Shown: positions 10,941 through 53,857, counted from the first letter of the stretch. The stretch: DNA of 64,000 nt from a virus (IMGVR_UViG_3300031134_000001:160001-224000); one strand, 5' to 3'. Numbers and translations are program-made. Notes: generated by a model not told the origin, from the sequence alone.

Positions 10941-11137
10941 ATCGTGTGGTAATAGAGATTTTAACGCACATATTACTGTTAAGATCTAGGTAACGGAACT
11001 TAGAGGCCAGTCCTTCGGGGCTGGCTTTCTATGCCGTCGTTTGGAAACGTAGGAAAAGTTATTCACCTCGCTCATGCTTTGGATGCAGTACGTCCGTATC
11101 CGGCTATTCTTTTGTGTCACTTTAAAAGGGAAGTACA

Positions 11138-12697
11138 ATGAACTCCAATAACCAACAACAAGAACCAACCAAATACGTTTTCTCCATCGATGAGGACGGC
11201 GACATCAGCCCGCATGCAGTAAAGGCAGGCACCGCAGTGCCTGAAATCCCAGCCGGCGTTTATACGTTGGTGTATATCGAACCAATGCCTGGTCGCGGCC
11301 CGCAGCTCTATCTGCGCCCAGAAAAGAACTTCCAGATTCCAGAGCGCCTCTACGGCGACGTCAAGCTGAACGTCGATCGCTATCTGCGTTCGTACGAGAT
11401 GAACGACAAGAATCTGGGTGCGCTGTTCATCGGCGAACAAGGTTCGGGTAAAACCATGCAGCTCAAAGCACTGGCGGTGAAAGCTGTCGAGCTGAGCTAC
11501 CCTGTGATCCTGATCAACGAGGTGATTCCAGGTTCGCTCCTGAACTGGTTCCTCTCGACCATTGTTCAGCCTACGCTCGTGTGTTTCGACGAATTCGAGA
11601 AATCGTACGACACCCCCGATAAGCAACGCCCGATCCTGCAGCTGCTCGACGGCACCAACACGGGTAGCAAAAAGATGTACTGCTTCTCGGCCAACGAGCT
11701 CAAGAAGATCAGCCCGCACATGGTCAATCGCCCAAGCCGTATTCGCTATGTGCGCACGTTCCGTCGCCTGGAAATCTCCACGGTGGTGGACTACGTGCAA
11801 ACCAACCTCAAGAACTGTACGGAAGACCACGTCCGTGCGTTCATCCATCTGGCTCTGGCTGACGGTCTGGACGAAGATCGCAAGAACATGTCGAACGGCA
11901 TGAACTTCGACATGATGGCCGAATACGTGCGCGAGATGAACCAATTCCCTGGTTCGCTCAACGAGGTGCTTCACGTGATGGGGTTGAAAGGCAGCGATAC
12001 GTGGGCCCGCTTCGAAGTGAACGGCTTTGTCGACGGCGAGCGGGTGCATCATGCCATGGCGCACGGCACGCACAGCGGCGCCTACGCGGGTAGCGATGAA
12101 TGGTTGATCAACTTCAGTATCCATGTAGAAAAACTGCGTGAGAAAGCTACCGAAGATGAAGTCGACCGCTGGAAATGGGACTACGACAAAGTCGAGCTCA
12201 CCCAGCGCGATTTCAAGAGCTTTGGCGATTCGCATGATTCGCTGATCTTTGAGAAAGATGGCGTGGAATACCACCTGCGCTATATCGACTTCGAGAAATC
12301 GAACAAGCTGAAAATCAAAGTGGAGGAAACCAATTCGGGAAAGCGGCCCGCGCAGCAGCCAAAGACGGCGGCTCTGCGCGTGGAATCGGCCGCGGATTCA
12401 GTTTCCCCATGTCCCTCCCCCTTGACCACAGCTTCGTCTTCCCACTCAGCCTCTCCTTCGGAAGAATGTACCGTGAAGCCTTCGGAGACTACAAGCCAGA
12501 CGACTACGCCGATGGCGGAAATCCAAAAAACATCCGAGAATCCGACGCAAAAGGAATCGAGCAGTCAACCTCCGGAGGAAAAGAACTCGACACCGACACC
12601 AACGAGAAACTCTCTGAAGACGGTGATGATGACGACGATGACGACGAAAGAAAGCCCGAAGGATGCCTCGACTGGTCATGACCCAGATCAGTCGTAA
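11138..12697 (+). CDS. AAA+ ATPase paralogue 1 (0-frame product; possible -1 frameshift isoform ending 12681)
   Basis: Walker A GEQGSGKT, Walker B VCFDEFEK, sensor SAN, NRPSRIRY. Confidence 0.9.
   Translation: MNSNNQQQEPTKYVFSIDEDGDISPHAVKAGTAVPEIPAGVYTLVYIEPMPGRGPQLYLRPEKNFQIPERLYGDVKLNVDRYLRSYEMNDKNLGALFIGEQGSGKTMQLKALAVKAVELSYPVILINEVIPGSLLNWFLSTIVQPTLVCFDEFEKSYDTPDKQRPILQLLDGTNTGSKKMYCFSANELKKISPHMVNRPSRIRYVRTFRRLEISTVVDYVQTNLKNCTEDHVRAFIHLALADGLDEDRKNMSNGMNFDMMAEYVREMNQFPGSLNEVLHVMGLKGSDTWARFEVNGFVDGERVHHAMAHGTHSGAYAGSDEWLINFSIHVEKLREKATEDEVDRWKWDYDKVELTQRDFKSFGDSHDSLIFEKDGVEYHLRYIDFEKSNKLKIKVEETNSGKRPAQQPKTAALRVESAADSVSPCPSPLTTASSSHSASPSEECTVKPSETTSQTTTPMAEIQKTSENPTQKESSSQPPEEKNSTPTPTRNSLKTVMMTTMTTKESPKDASTGHDPDQS
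12337..12383 (+). promoter_or_regulatory. candidate -1 programmed frameshift cassette
   Basis: In-register G_GGA_AAG (12337-43), 5-nt spacer, stem CGCGCAG/CTGCGCG (12349-55/12374-80) plus AGCC/GGCT; -1 frame open to 12681. Confidence 0.6.
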
Positions 12698-12790: not shown

Positions 12791-14227
12791 ATGAACATTC
12801 AAAAACAACAACGCGAAGAAGTCAAGTACGCTTTCGATATCGCAGACGACGGCGTGGTTCGTCCAATGCGTCGAGTGCGTTCGAACATGGTGGCTGAATT
12901 GCCACCGCGGGTATACCGCTTGGTTGTCGATCAGACTGGTCCGCATCTGGTGCCAGAAAACGACTTCAACATGCCGGCACGGGTGTACGGTACATCGAAC
13001 ACCTACGCGCAACGCTTTATCCGCGCATACGAGCTGGGTACCAAAAACCTCGGCGCGTTGCTGATCGGTTTGCCTGGTTCGGGTAAGACCTTGACGCTCA
13101 AGCACGTGGCCATGCTCGCGGTGCAAGCGATGATGCCGGCGATCATCGTCAACACGGCGATCTCCGGTCAGATCCTAACGCAATTCCTCTCGACCATCAC
13201 CCAGCAATGCGTGGTCTGCATGGATGAATTCGACAAGAAATACGGCGGCAAAGATTCGGACGGCGATTCGATCCCGCTGGAGATGCAAGACTCGATCCTG
13301 GAACTGCTCGATGGCGCGACCGTCGGCGAAAAGAAGATGTTCATTCTGACCGCCAACGACGACGGCAAGATCTCGCCTCTGCTCAAGGACCGTCCTAGCC
13401 GGATTCGCTACACGATCAAGTACGCGCAAATCGACCAGGACACCGTCATCGATTATGTCAGCTCCAACCTCAAGAACTGCACGGAGGATCATATCCGCGC
13501 TTTCCTGATGGTGGCCAACGCCGACCGCATGAGTCGCACCGGCATGAACTTCGATTCGATGGTCGAACTCGTGAACGAAATGAACTACTTCGAATGCTCG
13601 CTCGACGAAGCGCTCGAACTCATGCTGCGTAACGGCAAGGAATCCTTCACGTCATTTAATGTCAAGGTGTTCCGTGAAGGCGTGTGGATCGATACTTCAG
13701 CCGGCTTCGGTAGTCATAACGGCGTGTACATGACGAATGGTGACTACGTCCTCACCTTCCAAATGGTGGTGCCGTCGACGCAGGAGGATGTACCCGCCCA
13801 GCGTTACGAGGTGAGACTCACGGCTGATCATTTCGTCGGCTTCGCTGAAAGCCGTTCGGCCTTCGAGTTCAAACTCAATGAGTTCACGTTCATGCTCGAC
13901 ATGGTTGATCAAGCAACAGCCAGTCGAAATAGTACGGCTGCAAAGAACGCTTATGAACAGCGGCCTGACGTGATCGCATACAAAGAGCAGAAGCAAAAGG
14001 AGAAGGAGAAAGAAGCTGCTGAAAAGAACGCGGCAGAAAACGACGATGAAGATGATGGTCTGAAAATCCGTCGTCCGCGGATGTTCGGCATGGATCTGGA
14101 GGCCATGGGCATGGGTCGTCACCATTTGACTAGCCTTATCCGCGATTACGGGACCGAGGTGTCTTCCGATCTGTTGCCGCCGGCGATGAATTTCGGCGCG
14201 CCCGACCCTGACGACAAAGCATCATAA
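12791..14227 (+). CDS. AAA+ ATPase paralogue 2
   Basis: GLPGSGKT, VCMDEFDK, LTAN, DRPSRIRY; VIDYVSSNLKNCTEDHIRAF closely matches paralogue 1. Confidence 0.9.
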   Translation: MNIQKQQREEVKYAFDIADDGVVRPMRRVRSNMVAELPPRVYRLVVDQTGPHLVPENDFNMPARVYGTSNTYAQRFIRAYELGTKNLGALLIGLPGSGKTLTLKHVAMLAVQAMMPAIIVNTAISGQILTQFLSTITQQCVVCMDEFDKKYGGKDSDGDSIPLEMQDSILELLDGATVGEKKMFILTANDDGKISPLLKDRPSRIRYTIKYAQIDQDTVIDYVSSNLKNCTEDHIRAFLMVANADRMSRTGMNFDSMVELVNEMNYFECSLDEALELMLRNGKESFTSFNVKVFREGVWIDTSAGFGSHNGVYMTNGDYVLTFQMVVPSTQEDVPAQRYEVRLTADHFVGFAESRSAFEFKLNEFTFMLDMVDQATASRNSTAAKNAYEQRPDVIAYKEQKQKEKEKEAAEKNAAENDDEDDGLKIRRPRMFGMDLEAMGMGRHHLTSLIRDYGTEVSSDLLPPAMNFGAPDPDDKAS

Positions 14228-43419: not shown

Positions 43420-43734
43420 ATGGCAAAGAAAGATGTGTACCCAGGCGCTCGGTGCCGTATCATCGGCTCGGCCGTAGGTCCTAAAGGGACGTCGGTGGGT
43501 CGTGTGTGTATTGCGCGCGGTCCTGCTAAATCCCTGACGGGAGAACCGCACACGCTGTGGGGTCGGTTCTGGGAATGTGAATCGGCTGATGGTAAACCGT
43601 TCGATATCAAATACGGTGATGGACGTATCGATCGCCGTATGGTGGCGGCATTTGCCGAGGATTGGCTCGAAGTCATCGAAGACGATGAAGACCTGCCGAA
43701 AGCGAAAGCCAAAGAACACGAGCTGGTTGACTGA
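43420..43734 (+). CDS. hypothetical protein
   Basis: AAGGAG RBS. Confidence 0.75.
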   Translation: MAKKDVYPGARCRIIGSAVGPKGTSVGRVCIARGPAKSLTGEPHTLWGRFWECESADGKPFDIKYGDGRIDRRMVAAFAEDWLEVIEDDEDLPKAKAKEHELVD

Positions 43735-44761: not shown

Positions 44762-45574
44762 ATGAAACAAATCTCGATCGTTACCGAACCAACCAAACCG
44801 CAATACGGCGCTTGGGGTTCTATCGCTCTGCGCCCACACAAGAAAAATATCGAACACCTGGACGATCTGCCGCTGGCGTATGTCATGCTGGCTAACTTCA
44901 ACACCGCCCAAAACATCATCCAACCACTCGATGTTGAGCTGCATGCCGCGGCCTTCGAAGAACTGAACTGGGATGTTGTCGCCCTGCAGATCGGTGAGGC
45001 CATCCAAAAGCTGGTATCGGAAAACACGCCTGAGGACACCGTCTACGAAATCCGCGCACCACACGGCTCCACCAACGGCTGTTCGCAAACCATGCTGACC
45101 AACGAAGCCCGACTCGAAGCCATCGGCAAAAACGTCATCATTCAATACCGCAATCGCCACTCTGGCTTCTATCAAGCCGTCAACAATGAGCCGTTGATGC
45201 ATTCCGGCATTAGCACTCATGGCAATATCATCAACATGCATCTGGCTGTCGGCGCAGGCATTACCTTCCAGACCTACAACGAGAAGGAGCAAGTCCGCGC
45301 TATCGAAAACGCAGTGGGTGGTTTCTACGGCACTTGCCGCCTCGACGGCGTGCTGAAGCATTTCTCGCTGACGCAGGAAATGCAGTATGGTTCGGCCGCG
45401 ATTCCCCTGAACGAATACGTCTTCAGCGACAACTTTTTGGTGCCGCTGATTAAGAATGCAGTGGGCGCAGCCTTCCCATTCCTGGACGCGCTGCACAACC
45501 CGCTCACAAAAATCTCGATCAGCTCGCGCGGCGACACCATGACCGATTGCGCTCTGCGCGGTCGTTCGTTCTAA
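44762..45574 (+). CDS. hypothetical protein
   Basis: AACTAACAACACAAAAGGA leader; terminator follows. Confidence 0.8.
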   Translation: MKQISIVTEPTKPQYGAWGSIALRPHKKNIEHLDDLPLAYVMLANFNTAQNIIQPLDVELHAAAFEELNWDVVALQIGEAIQKLVSENTPEDTVYEIRAPHGSTNGCSQTMLTNEARLEAIGKNVIIQYRNRHSGFYQAVNNEPLMHSGISTHGNIINMHLAVGAGITFQTYNEKEQVRAIENAVGGFYGTCRLDGVLKHFSLTQEMQYGSAAIPLNEYVFSDNFLVPLIKNAVGAAFPFLDALHNPLTKISISSRGDTMTDCALRGRSF

Positions 45575-45633
45575 ACTCGCAGGAGGGGATCGCAAACCCC
45601 TCCTTTTTTCTATCATCTTACCAGGATACTAAA

Positions 45634-47046
45634 ATGAACATTTCGCTCAAGATCACCAGCTTGCATTTCTCGAACATGGGAGCGCAGCAACAGCCGCACC
45701 ACCGCAGTTACTTGGCGGACTTTACCAATTCGACCAAAAAGAAAATCAAAGCGCTTGACGGTCAAGCCATGCGTCAAGCAGTGCGTCGCCTGTCCGCCGA
45801 CCATCCCGACAACGAAGAATACTTGCTCCACCCATTCGCTACCAACGTCGTGGGCTTTTCCGTACACAGCAAAGTCGTTCCTTTCCCCATGGGCAAACGT
45901 AATGGCTGGGAAGATGGTGTGGCAAGTTTTGTACTCCACGTTTCGGTGATGAATGGCGCTATGCCTAAGAAATACATCATCGCCGGTTACACCGATCGTC
46001 CTATCCCGGAAGACGGCGCAGCCTTTGATCCTGACATGCTGCTGATGATCAACTCGATCTTTGAAATTATCGAAGCACGTGGGTTCGGCGCCATCGTGCG
46101 TAACGCCAGTCATGTTCTGTCAAATCCGCAATACCACGGCCCGTATGGCGATGCAGATTCACCGAACAGTAATCCTCATCGCATGCGACCGCAAGAAGTC
46201 TTTGGCCGGATGGAAATCAACAGCATGCCTGAATTGATGAATGGTCAAAGCGTGTATGATACGCGTAGTGCACACACCTCTACAGCAATGCTCAGTAACT
46301 ACGGTTATAGCAATCCAGCGCACTGGCTAAGCACCATCGTTAACGCATCAGCCAAGCATCACATCCGCGAACTTCAAACGCCACATGAGTATCTTCAGAC
46401 GTCGACAGGGATCACGGCGCTCGCAAGTTCGGTGCGTGAACAAAGCGCACATGCAAATGTGTTCTTGGCGGCGCTGAAAAAAATCATCGGTCACGGCGCA
46501 CCTTCACCAATCTTTCAACTGAAAGACTTGGCGCCTATCGATACTGATTATCTCGATGTCTGCAATGTCGTTGAAGGATCGCGTCACCACATCGACATGG
46601 GCTTTGAAAGCTGGGGCGCTTTCGATTTGATGTCGTTGGCAGCGCACCACATCAACCAAGTCGTGCCAACGATTCTGGCTAAGCATGGTTTGCGCTCGAT
46701 TGCGTTTAACGCTTTCCTGGAAGCTGGAGCAGTCCAACAAGACGGCATCACCATCAGTAACGTTGGTGCTCTCGTTGGCGACACTGGTATGTCGCCGCAA
46801 ATGAACGTGGTGGAAGACCTGCGCTTGCAAGTGTTTGATGTTGTGGAAAAGATGTTGGGTGGTGACTATCGTTTTGCTGGTAAATTCGATCTGTTTGGCA
46901 CCAGTAAGTTCATGCTCGAACACCGCGGTGAGACGAAGCACTACGGCTTCCCAACGTTTGCCAATGCGTTGACGTCGCCTATCATTGCCGATCAGCTGGT
47001 TCTCGAACACATGGCTGCGGGTATTGAAGAAGCGCTGGTCTCGTGA
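45634..47046 (+). CDS. phiKZ gp69 (PicA/Imp1)-like protein, divergent
   Basis: NGW...FVLHV...IAGYTD...DPDM..INS...SHVL...RMRPQEVF...YDTR...NPAHWLS...FANALTSPI resemble the recalled core family; start revised to ATG 45634. Confidence 0.55.
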   Translation: MNISLKITSLHFSNMGAQQQPHHRSYLADFTNSTKKKIKALDGQAMRQAVRRLSADHPDNEEYLLHPFATNVVGFSVHSKVVPFPMGKRNGWEDGVASFVLHVSVMNGAMPKKYIIAGYTDRPIPEDGAAFDPDMLLMINSIFEIIEARGFGAIVRNASHVLSNPQYHGPYGDADSPNSNPHRMRPQEVFGRMEINSMPELMNGQSVYDTRSAHTSTAMLSNYGYSNPAHWLSTIVNASAKHHIRELQTPHEYLQTSTGITALASSVREQSAHANVFLAALKKIIGHGAPSPIFQLKDLAPIDTDYLDVCNVVEGSRHHIDMGFESWGAFDLMSLAAHHINQVVPTILAKHGLRSIAFNAFLEAGAVQQDGITISNVGALVGDTGMSPQMNVVEDLRLQVFDVVEKMLGGDYRFAGKFDLFGTSKFMLEHRGETKHYGFPTFANALTSPIIADQLVLEHMAAGIEEALVS

Positions 47047-47053
47047 TCATTTA

Positions 47054-47098
47054 ACGGCATAAGACAGAGAGCCTTCGGGCTCTCTTCTTTTTCTATGC
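47054..47098. terminator. ACGGCATA...TATGC-flanked hairpin
   Basis: GAGAGCC-TTCG-GGCTCTC plus T-run. Confidence 0.85.
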
Positions 47099-47117: not shown

Positions 47118-47381
47118 ATGCCGCCTGATGTAGAACTCAAAGAATTGTTAAAACGCGTTCGCGCCTGGCACACAGTCAGGATGCGAAGATACAAGAACGA
47201 CTTACCGGACGACGTCTACTACGCCGCTTACTTACCCAGCTTACAATTATACCAACGCGCTAAGCAGAGTTACTACCTTAGCGATTTACGAGAACTGCGC
47301 ATTATTGCAAGATCCGTCAATTACCACATTGAACCGTGGTCAGTGACGGCGTGGTACGCGTTAAACACTAAGAAGGTGTGA
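47118..47381 (+). CDS. hypothetical protein
   Basis: ORF track; no clear RBS. Confidence 0.45.
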   Translation: MPPDVELKELLKRVRAWHTVRMRRYKNDLPDDVYYAAYLPSLQLYQRAKQSYYLSDLRELRIIARSVNYHIEPWSVTAWYALNTKKV

Positions 47382-47395
47382 ATTTATTTCACGCC

Positions 47396-47410
47396 TATAT
47401 CACTTAGGTG
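47396..47410 (+). promoter_or_regulatory. putative early promoter core TATATCACTTAGGTG
   Basis: Recurrent motif. Confidence 0.55.
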
Positions 47411-49007: not shown

Positions 49008-49946
49008 ATGAATGAAGCTGCTATCCTTTCCGACCGCCAGATCCGTGAACTGTGCGAGAAACCTGTCGGCACCCTGCGTTACACCGATTCCCGCCATGGT
49101 CCGGTTACTGAAGAACGTCGGGTACAAGTCTACGCTGATCAACTCGTTAACGGGTATCGCCAACACTTTGATGCTTACGCGGAAAAGCACGGCGGTAAAC
49201 AGATCCACGGTACACGCATTACGCTGCATGACGTTCACAGCGACGTCTATCAAGAGCACTATCGCGACTTCCAACCAATGATCGAACCGTTTTCTCCGCA
49301 CCAAGTTCGCGAGAACGAGCGCAACGCTACGGACGAAGAAGTGTATGTGATTCAACGCATGCTCAATGAAGAAGGTGTCGGCAATAAAGTTGACATCATC
49401 GCGGAACTGCAAAAGAAATGGCCTAGCATCCGGTCATTCCGGCTAGACATCATGCTGGGCTACCAGATCCTGGAAAAGATCGTCAGCTACGGTTTGACCT
49501 CGTTCGGTTACGATGTGCGCTGCGGTCGTGAATTCAAGATCTTCACCAACATCAATTCCACGCTGATCGATCCGAAGAACTTCGACGACAAGAACTTCGT
49601 GGACTTCGTCGGCGACGTTTGCATTATCCCGCCCAATTCGTTCGTGCTGGCCCGGACCATGGAACGCTTTGATCTGCCCCGCGACATCGTCGCTGACTGC
49701 GTGGGTAAGTCCACTTACGCCCGGTGCGGCATCTCCATCATGGTCACGCCACTCGAACCTGAGTGGGACGGCTACCTGACGCTGGAGTTCGCCAACACGA
49801 CCCCGCTGCCAGCCAAGCTGTATGCTGGTGAAGGTTGTGGTCAGATCCGCTTCTTCCGCGGCAGCGAAGGCTGCGAGACGTCGTACCGTGACCGTGGTGG
49901 CAAGTACCTCGGTCAAACCGATCAACCTGTCACACCGAAGATGTAA
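49008..49946 (+). CDS. dcd: dCTP deaminase with two N-terminal insertions
   Basis: [71 protein letters not shown]. Confidence 0.95.
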
Positions 49947-52621: not shown

Positions 52622-53857
52622 ATGCAGTTCTATATCGTCGGCGGCTATGTCCGCGATAAGGTTTTGGGCAGAATACCTAAAGACCGTGATCTCGTGGTCG
52701 TGGGAGCTACCGAGGCTGATATGCTGGAGTTTGGCTGTCGGCCGGTTGGTAAAGACTTTCCTAGCTTCATCGGTCCAGATGGCGATGAAATTTCCATGGC
52801 GCGCCGTTCCCGTAATGGCGGGGTCGCTGACTTCGGTCCTGAAGTTACCCTCGAAGAAGATCTGGGTAAGCGAGATCTGACCATCAACGCCATGGCCATG
52901 GGCGAAGCCTACGAGGGTGATGCGTCGCTGATCGATCCGTATTTCGGCCACGACGACCTGCTTAACAAAGTGCTGCGTATGGTCAGCGAAGAAGCGTTTC
53001 GTGAAGACCCTATCCGAGTGCTGCGTGTTGCGCGGTTCGCTGCCCGCCTTCCGGACTTCCGGATCGACACCGACACCATGCATGTCATGAAGTCGCTCGT
53101 GATGGAAGGCAAACTCGACAACCTCGTGCCGGAACGGGTGTGGAAAGAACTGCACCGCGGCCTGATGGAAACCCAGCCCTCCAGGATGCTCAAGACGCTG
53201 CGTTTTTGCGGTGCACTCAAAGCCATCCTGCCGGAAGTCGATGCGCTCTACGGGGTCCCACAACCTGCCCAATGGCATCCTGAAGTGGATACGGGCATTC
53301 ATATCGAACAAGTGCTCGACTACGCGGCCAGCCAAGACTTTGCGCTGCCGGTGCGTGTGGCTGCGTTGCTGCATGACGTCGGTAAAGCATTAACACCGGC
53401 TGACACGTGGCCTGCTCACCATGGTCATGAAGGACTGGGCGAGCGCACTGCGCTGGCTGTGTGTGAGCGTCTGCGCGTGCCGGACTCTATCGCCCGTGTG
53501 GTGGCAATGACGACCCGTGAGCACGGTAACGTGCATGCAGCACTGAAGCTGCGGCCTGTGTCTGTGACGCGGTTGCTGCGTAAGTGCGACGCATTCCGTA
53601 ATCCCGATCGTTTTCAATACATGCTGCAAGCCTGCATGTGCGACGCACGTGGTCGTAAGTCCGACACCGTGAGCTTTGAAAACGTTGAGTATCCACAAGC
53701 CATGCGCTTGAGCGGTGCTCTGTGGGCAGCCCGGCAAGTCAAAGGCCATGACATCGCTGCCAAGTTCAAAGATCGTCCTGAAGAGATCGCAGTTCACATC
53801 CACGCTGAACGCGCCCGCGCTATCCGTCGCTTCGAAAAACAACACCCCGTCAATTAA
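52622..53857 (+). CDS. cca: multifunctional CCA-adding enzyme with HD domain
   Basis: YIVGGYVRD, DRD, VGKDFP, RDLTINAMA, EDPIRVLRVARF, ERVWKE, HPEVDTGIH, LLHDVGK, HHGHE. Confidence 0.95.
   Translation: MQFYIVGGYVRDKVLGRIPKDRDLVVVGATEADMLEFGCRPVGKDFPSFIGPDGDEISMARRSRNGGVADFGPEVTLEEDLGKRDLTINAMAMGEAYEGDASLIDPYFGHDDLLNKVLRMVSEEAFREDPIRVLRVARFAARLPDFRIDTDTMHVMKSLVMEGKLDNLVPERVWKELHRGLMETQPSRMLKTLRFCGALKAILPEVDALYGVPQPAQWHPEVDTGIHIEQVLDYAASQDFALPVRVAALLHDVGKALTPADTWPAHHGHEGLGERTALAVCERLRVPDSIARVVAMTTREHGNVHAALKLRPVSVTRLLRKCDAFRNPDRFQYMLQACMCDARGRKSDTVSFENVEYPQAMRLSGALWAARQVKGHDIAAKFKDRPEEIAVHIHAERARAIRRFEKQHPVN

Follow-up and report, generated by a model that had tools for sequence, protein, structure and literature searches.

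A second, tail-less copy of the PicA/Imp1 nuclear import gene in an uncultivated nucleus-forming jumbo phage

A monocistronic gene in an accessory arm of the phage genome

The window analyzed here is a stretch of 64,000 nucleotides that comprises bases 160001-224000 of a 271,026-bp virus record from IMG/VR (hereinafter G000) with direct terminal repeats, rated 100% complete. The record represents an uncultivated, nucleus-forming, chimallin-encoding jumbo phage with a genome of about 271 kb. Positions given below are those of the window unless they are denoted as genome coordinates. Nearly all plausible genes in the window are located on the plus strand.

The gene at the focus of this analysis occupies positions 45634-47046 of the plus strand, where an open, intact frame with an ATG start encodes a 470-aa protein of the phiKZ gp69 family that is characterized below as a tail-less paralog of Imp1. 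A Shine-Dalgarno-like AGGA, read from the sequence, is found on the same strand at 45623-45626, 7 nt 5' of the ATG. On both sides, the gene is delimited by intrinsic-terminator-like hairpins followed by T-runs, also on the plus strand. The upstream hairpin (45581-45604; 8 pairs, of which 6 are G-C) closes a 270-aa gene (44762-45574, plus strand) that lies directly 5' of the paralog, and a gap of 29 nt separates this hairpin from the paralog ATG. The downstream hairpin (47066-47085; 8 pairs) closes the monocistronic unit of the paralog and is also kept in a closely related sibling contig. The upstream hairpin, the gap and the ribosome-binding site are 100% identical in the sibling genome compared to 92% identity for the paralog coding sequence. 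The paralog is its own terminator-bounded expression unit, in agreement with the preliminary description of this DNA, made from the sequence alone, in which the gene was said to be isolated between two terminators.

The 270-aa upstream gene has no PHROG match, and a 267-aa ORF is found in the same place in one of the related genomes (G001; see below). The possibility that this gene encodes a second Imp6 was considered and rejected given that BLASTP detected nothing and no PHROG matched. Farther out, a 104-aa gene (43420-43734, plus strand; 40-54% identity in relatives) and a dCTP deaminase gene (49008-49946, plus strand; 47-50% identity in relatives) mark the upstream and downstream edges, respectively, of a syntenic site that encompasses the paralog. 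The match of the deaminase to PHROG 1663 starts at residue 88, leaving an N-terminal extension of about 87 residues. Immediately 3' of the terminator of the paralog, at 47118-47381, there is an 87-aa ORF whose ATG forms part of a TATGCCG motif. G001 and contig L029 have weak homologs (27-29% identity) at the corresponding position, and the ORF is uncalled in the sibling contig. More generally, the arm of the genome that carries the paralog consists of fast-evolving genes without family assignment mixed with genes for nucleotide metabolism, such as the dCTP deaminase and a CCA-adding enzyme (52622-53857). The same arm includes another duplicated pair, namely, the adjacent ATPase paralogs at 11138-12697 and 12791-14227 (PHROG 2376, E-values of 1e-58 to 1e-59).

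The gene encodes a member of the PicA/Imp1 family

Proteins of the PicA/Imp1 family (PHROG 3141) are known as gp69 in phiKZ, gp63 in PhiPA3, gp125 in 201phi2-1 and gp174 in Goslar. The PHROG 3141 profile matched the 470-aa protein with an E-value of 2.3e-30 across residues 4-462; for comparison, the same profile yielded 2.7e-179 for phiKZ gp69 itself and 1.3e-61 for the canonical copy that is encoded elsewhere in the same genome. In a tblastn search, the protein aligned with PHIKZ069 over 96% of the query at 23% identity (E-value of 6e-7), and 57 phage records yielded a match to PHIKZ069 or one of its orthologs, with identities of 22-25% and a query coverage of 77-97%. When 1.84 billion representatives were searched exhaustively with phmmer, 322 family matches were recovered at an E-value of at most 1e-3, and a Pfam search with the same protein gave no significant match.

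The structure predicted with AlphaFold2 from an alignment of 121 sequences has a pLDDT of 90 and a pTM of 0.91. When this model was used for a fold search of BFVD, all of the top 15 matches were chimallivirus proteins of the gp69 family, with TM-scores of 0.73-0.86 and E-values from 1e-21 to 1e-32, from the Ralstonia phages RSF1 and RP12 as well as Serratia, Klebsiella, Erwinia and Aeromonas phages; the next match was at the level of noise. The PDB contains no relative of the family that would be detectable by sequence or by fold, in keeping with the literature, where Imp1 is stated to lack homologs of known function. All 11 near-invariant positions of the family (at least 90% conservation among the 121 sequences) are present in the protein, and the same genome encodes a canonical chimallin (genome coordinates 86573-88594), as is the case for the phages that encode PicA/Imp1. 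Thus, sequence, profile and predicted fold agree in showing that the gene is a genuine, intact member of the PicA/Imp1 family with full-length homology to gp69, so that the family call in the preliminary description was correct.

Two features set this gene apart from its relatives: it lies outside the gp68-gp70 interval that adjoins the nvRNAP genes, and it duplicates a gene that is treated as a single-copy, essential component of the core. Because location and copy number typify the family but do not define it, these deviations mark the gene as a paralog and not as a non-member.

The canonical copy is located in the conserved block of nuclear-core genes

A tblastn search with the phiKZ proteins gp50 to gp82 revealed a collinear block at 81-115 kb of the genome, with homologs of gp50, gp52, gp54 (chimallin), gp55, gp59 (Imp3), gp65, gp66, gp68, gp69, gp70, gp71, gp73, gp74, gp75, gp77, gp80 and gp82; a positional homolog of gp67 (Imp6/ChmC) in this block is backed by PHROG 3284. 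The gp69 homolog in the block, identified with PHROG 3141 and by tblastn, is a 555-aa protein encoded at genome coordinates 96941-98608 (L006:12941-14608), between the gp68 and gp70 homologs. The canonical chimallin of the block (673 aa; genome coordinates 86573-88594) matches PHROG 4795 with an E-value of 4e-43 and Pfam PF25677 with a score of 77.7 bits (cut-off 27).

The paralog is 108 kb away from this canonical block, its neighbors are unrelated accessory genes, and it shares 24% identity with canonical Imp1 over 496 alignment columns. The gene at 45634-47046 is therefore a true second copy of PicA/Imp1 rather than a displaced sole copy in a rearranged genome, and the placement of the gene outside the nvRNAP block in the preliminary description is borne out along with its status as a second copy. 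Imp6, Imp3 and gp68 are single-copy each, with no second match in the genome at E-values up to 10, and the only duplicated nuclear-core genes that were found are Imp1 and chimallin. In cultivated phages, PHROG 3141 has one match each in phiKZ, RSF1, RAY, Noxifer and FLC9, and tblastn across 126 cultivated phage records located the family at one place in each.

Distribution and origin of the paralog

The closest relative of the paralog is encoded in the sibling contig (JGI, 39 kb), where an ortholog with 90% identity is found in an identical gene order. More distant relatives include two other IMG/VR genomes, the complete G001 (322,570 bp) and the 83% complete G002 (226,011 bp). Two PHROG 3141 proteins are encoded in each of these genomes, one of the canonical type and a short one of the paralog type; the paralog of G002 (P0007) is also present on a complete JGI contig of 269,010 bp that carries the canonical block. 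The co-occurrence of the two Imp1 copies is based on three species-level genomes, G000, G001 and G002, that are mutually divergent, with their chimallins being 34-58% identical to one another. Five contigs share the syntenic site, which consists of homologs of the 104-aa gene, the paralog, genes for 87-aa, 251-aa and 245-aa proteins, and the dCTP deaminase gene. A distant sub-clade of the paralogs (P0005, P0006, P0008 and P0009) occupies another site, near a helicase gene and the major capsid gene and not beside gp68. More than 10 clusters, delimited at 50% identity, have an intact reading frame for the paralog, and the dN/dS ratio for the comparison with the 90%-identical sibling is 0.22, similar to the values for the flanking genes. 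Judged by these sequence comparisons, the paralog is maintained by selection and is positionally fixed.

A phylogenetic tree of 150 sequences (LG+G4) groups the paralog-type proteins in one clade (SH-aLRT of 99), which joins the canonical clade of the same lineage in a 21-sequence clade (SH-aLRT of 98). A tree of 53 sequences (LG+C20+F+G4, PMSF) yielded supports of 100 for the paralog clade, 100 for the canonical clade and 94 for their union; the SH-aLRT values come from quick tree searches. The trees place the paralog clade as the sister group of the canonical clade of its own lineage. Because the larger tree comprises the 150 proteins of the entire library with the greatest similarity to the paralog, any closer donor lineage would have been among them, and hence the best reading of these trees is an old duplication within this uncultivated chimallivirus lineage, antedating the split of G000, G001 and G002. 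The internal branches of the paralog tree are poorly resolved and do not clearly mirror the canonical tree, and given this pattern, the paralog may have been exchanged between phages.

Fast evolution and loss of the terminal tails

To judge from the comparison of the proteins of G000 with their G002-type counterparts, the conserved components of the block are 50-68% identical (gp68, 68%; Imp3, 67%; Imp6, 66%; ChmA, 58%; canonical Imp1, 52%; gp70, 50%), whereas the Imp1 paralogs and the chimallin-like proteins described in the next section are only 29% and 25% identical, respectively. These identities show the paralog as evolving about twice as fast as its canonical sister. The sequence neighborhood of the paralog is also discontinuous: beyond the sibling ortholog at 90% identity, the next relatives are at 34% or less; Imp6, by contrast, has about 20 relatives at 54-71%. 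Because the paralog diverges so fast, word-based protein search and pattern scans retrieve few of its relatives. The flanking accessory genes diverge as fast as the paralog (23-54% identity), and therefore its rate is partly a property of the region.

In the model of canonical Imp1 (pLDDT of 90.4), strands and helices follow one another in the same order as in that of the paralog. The parts that are found only in the canonical protein are a disordered N-terminal tail (residues 1-36; pLDDT of about 50), a beta insert (residues 166-182) and a C-terminal tail (residues 534-555), and throughout the paralog clade, the proteins start at the first strand and end with the last helix. Thus, unlike its canonical sister, the paralog is predicted to consist of the whole PicA/Imp1 core fold, with the N-terminal and C-terminal tails and the small beta insert lost. 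Within the canonical clade, aromatic positions are conserved in the 36-residue N-terminal tail, and so is a terminal TPSGxRY motif. These elements are candidate short linear docking motifs, which would be absent from the paralog clade.

Compared to the near-invariant residues, all of which are retained, the less strictly conserved positions have changed substantially. Among the 81 positions that are at least 60% conserved in the family, the paralog keeps 44 and the canonical copy keeps 52; at the level of clades, the same columns are kept in 40 and 52 cases, respectively. The N-terminal TGTY..RP motif is mostly lost in the paralog clade, and the two clades have become fixed for different residues at six sites, those of the paralog clade being S98, W231, R399, F418, S424 and T441. 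Of the positions at which mutations affect cargo selectivity in phiKZ (as listed in PMC11087766 and bioRxiv 10.1101/2024.03.27.586873), 14 of 15 differ between the paralog and the canonical copy, but about 11 differences would be expected from the overall identity of 24% so that this count is not specific evidence of altered selectivity.

A remote chimallin homolog in the same arm

The preliminary description also invoked a displaced chimallin. A remote paralog of chimallin (ChmA) is indeed encoded in the window, at 22603-24288 on the plus strand (561 aa). The similarity was detected by hhalign, with a probability of 97.6% and an E-value of 3.1e-12 over 368 columns, by comparing a profile of this ORF, its sibling ortholog and its G002 homolog with a profile of four canonical chimallins; residues 129-542 align with residues 202-617 of the 673-aa canonical chimallin, the C-terminal end of which has no counterpart. 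The relationship is very distant, such that BLASTP was negative, and neither PHROG 4795 nor Pfam PF25677 detects this ORF in G000; the sibling ortholog has a precomputed Pfam chimallin match, and the G002 homolog has a sub-threshold one (E-value of 0.002). Another candidate for the displaced chimallin, the gene at 55490-57169 (PHROG 1735), was rejected.

In both G000 and G002, the chimallin-like gene lies in the same arm as the Imp1 paralog, about 21 kb away from it. In G001, neither single-sequence nor profile search found a chimallin-like gene although the Imp1 paralog is present; the gene may be too diverged to be detected. The two genes belong to separate transcription units and have no common upstream motif. 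The proposal in the preliminary description of a second set of shell protein plus importer, which would confer alternative cargo specificity or interfere with rival phages, would fit the presence of both paralogs in G000 and G002, and fits less well with the separation of the genes by 21 kb, their separate transcription and the situation in G001. The chimallin-like protein could possibly be a functional partner of the Imp1 paralog.

Functional implications of the second Imp1 copy

[quoted passage not shown] In the literature, which here includes open-access papers and bioRxiv preprints (among them the founding papers, reviews from 2025 and 2026 and a 2026 preprint on RNAP import), Imp1/PicA figures as one conserved, essential gene, and no paralog is described.

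The best explanation of the observations, to which we would give about an even chance, appears to be that the paralog is a functional, lineage-conserved second cargo-licensing factor for nuclear import, with a cargo range different from that of canonical Imp1. On the best reading of the trees, the paralog stems from an old duplication; it occupies a fixed site in the fast-evolving accessory arm and has been kept by purifying selection. Its product would act at the nuclear shell as a second cargo licenser that reads surfaces of folded cargo proteins other than those read by canonical Imp1, and the phage would thereby widen or re-time nuclear entry while leaving the essential canonical importer untouched. 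The paralog may perform this role together with the co-occurring, tail-less chimallin paralog. The loss of about half of the moderately conserved positions of the family could also reflect changed function rather than changed cargo. The prediction of a complex of the paralog with the single-copy Imp6 (residues 1-215) gave a score of 0.00, which speaks neither for nor against binding.

We consider it unlikely that the paralog is instead a modulator or competitor of import, that is, a tail-less core that would bind cargo or shell sites without being able to complete transport and would slow import, gate it in time or serve as a decoy. Such a protein might, for example, sequester the nuclear proteins of co-infecting relatives or block their importer, which is the interference with rival phages suggested in the preliminary description. 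This possibility is compatible with the loss of both flexible tails that contain conserved motifs in the canonical clade, with the location of the paralog among the fast-evolving genes of the accessory arm, and with the published finding that the nuclear proteins of one chimallivirus are discriminated against by others (PMC11087766). The very fast, discontinuous divergence of the paralog is the pattern expected under conflict, but the flanking genes diverge equally fast, so that the rate may reflect the region, and the dN/dS ratio of 0.22 reveals no short-range excess of replacements. Furthermore, several single-copy canonical members of the family in cultivated phages are also short (482 aa in RSF1), and hence the absence of the tails alone does not imply inactivity.

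Somewhat harder to credit is the possibility that the paralog is a dedicated partner of the tail-less chimallin paralog, the two jointly building a structure with a specificity of its own, be it a distinct shell gate or patch or a separate compartment. Three facts speak for such a partnership: among the nuclear-core genes, duplicates were found only for Imp1 and chimallin; in G000 as well as in G002, about 21 kb of the same arm separates the two paralogs; and these two proteins evolve the fastest in the compared set, with identities of 29% and 25% where the other proteins have 50-68%. The separate transcription units, without a shared upstream motif, and the apparent absence of the chimallin-like gene from G001, by both types of search, speak against it. 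It appears similarly doubtful that the two tail-less paralogs co-evolve to provide the shell with a second, specialized gate or to supply both wall and gate for a separate compartment.

We regard as very unlikely a re-purposing of the fold for a job unrelated to import, such as a protein of the early infection vesicle, a factor of mRNA export or a virion protein. The retention of only 40 of the 81 family-conserved columns in the paralog clade, the six residues that this clade conserves on its own, and the location of the gene of one sub-clade near the genes for the major capsid protein and a helicase (L039) would all be consistent with a new role; against this, the fold is identical over the full length (TM-scores up to 0.86), every near-invariant residue of the family is kept, and the family is not known outside chimallin-encoding phages and has one known role. 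Finally, two readings suggested by the accessory location and by a length below that of the sister copy are effectively refuted: a decaying duplicate, by the intact frame in more than 10 clusters, the dN/dS ratio of 0.22 and the confidently predicted fold; and a gp68-like RNAP subunit, by the match of PHROG 3209 to the canonical gp68 gene only, at E-values up to 10 across the genome, and by an E-value of 0.46 in the BLASTP comparison of the paralog with the phage's own gp68.

If the paralog is a second cargo-licensing factor as proposed here, it invites comparison with phiKZ Imp2, Imp4, Imp5 and Imp7, which are lineage-restricted, fast-evolving, encoded outside the core block and tune the nuclear cargo (bioRxiv 10.1101/2024.03.27.586873; 10.64898/2026.09.21.753271). 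The paralog shares the first three of these properties. Unlike those proteins, which are small and unrelated to Imp1, in this case specificity would diversify by duplication of the central licensing factor itself, so that gene duplication, besides the recruitment of small adaptors, may have diversified nuclear import in these phages. A further parallel, as an analogy only, is with the karyopherin/importin-beta families of eukaryotes, in which paralogous receptors carry different cargo sets through one shared gate; there is no homology between the two, and the phage shell is a protein lattice. Should a second gate indeed exist, these phages would import proteins through two channels that obey different cargo rules; such a gate would be the viral equivalent of paralogous transport receptors and would offer a handle on minor components of the shell. 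Given that the same genomes encode a tail-less chimallin paralog, current models may underestimate the heterogeneity of the shell. A maintained copy that lacks the tails can also be viewed as a natural experiment that separates the role of the core, probably contact with cargo and shell, from the role of the tails.

Promoter-like motifs

The motif CTATATCAC occurs 11 times on the plus strand of the genome and 0 times on the minus strand, with about one occurrence expected. Within the window, copies of CTATATCAC(T) are located at 20961, 36844, 38935 and 47395, for example, CTATATCACT at 47395-47404, and 'ctaaa' is often found about 15 nt upstream. The motif stands 5' of the chimallin gene, the gp68-gp69 pair, gp71 and several genes in the window, and it resembles the core of the phiKZ early promoters, TATATTAC. 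It is probably the early or middle promoter of the phage RNAP in this lineage. Unlike the operon of its canonical sister, the paralog has no such motif: the region upstream of it contains neither the CTATATCACT motif nor the hairpin-TATGCCG motif, and a sigma-70 scan yielded nothing relevant.

A second motif, TATGCCG(T), is found directly 3' of GC-rich hairpins that lack a T-run. There are 29 copies on the plus strand, compared with about 16 expected, and many of these are intergenic; those in the window are at 11030, 34875, 36821, 38865, 39995, 57211 and 63305. Together with the hairpin, this motif may constitute a composite signal of termination and late promotion or, alternatively, a signal for RNA processing. 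Its TATG core recalls the late promoters of phiKZ.
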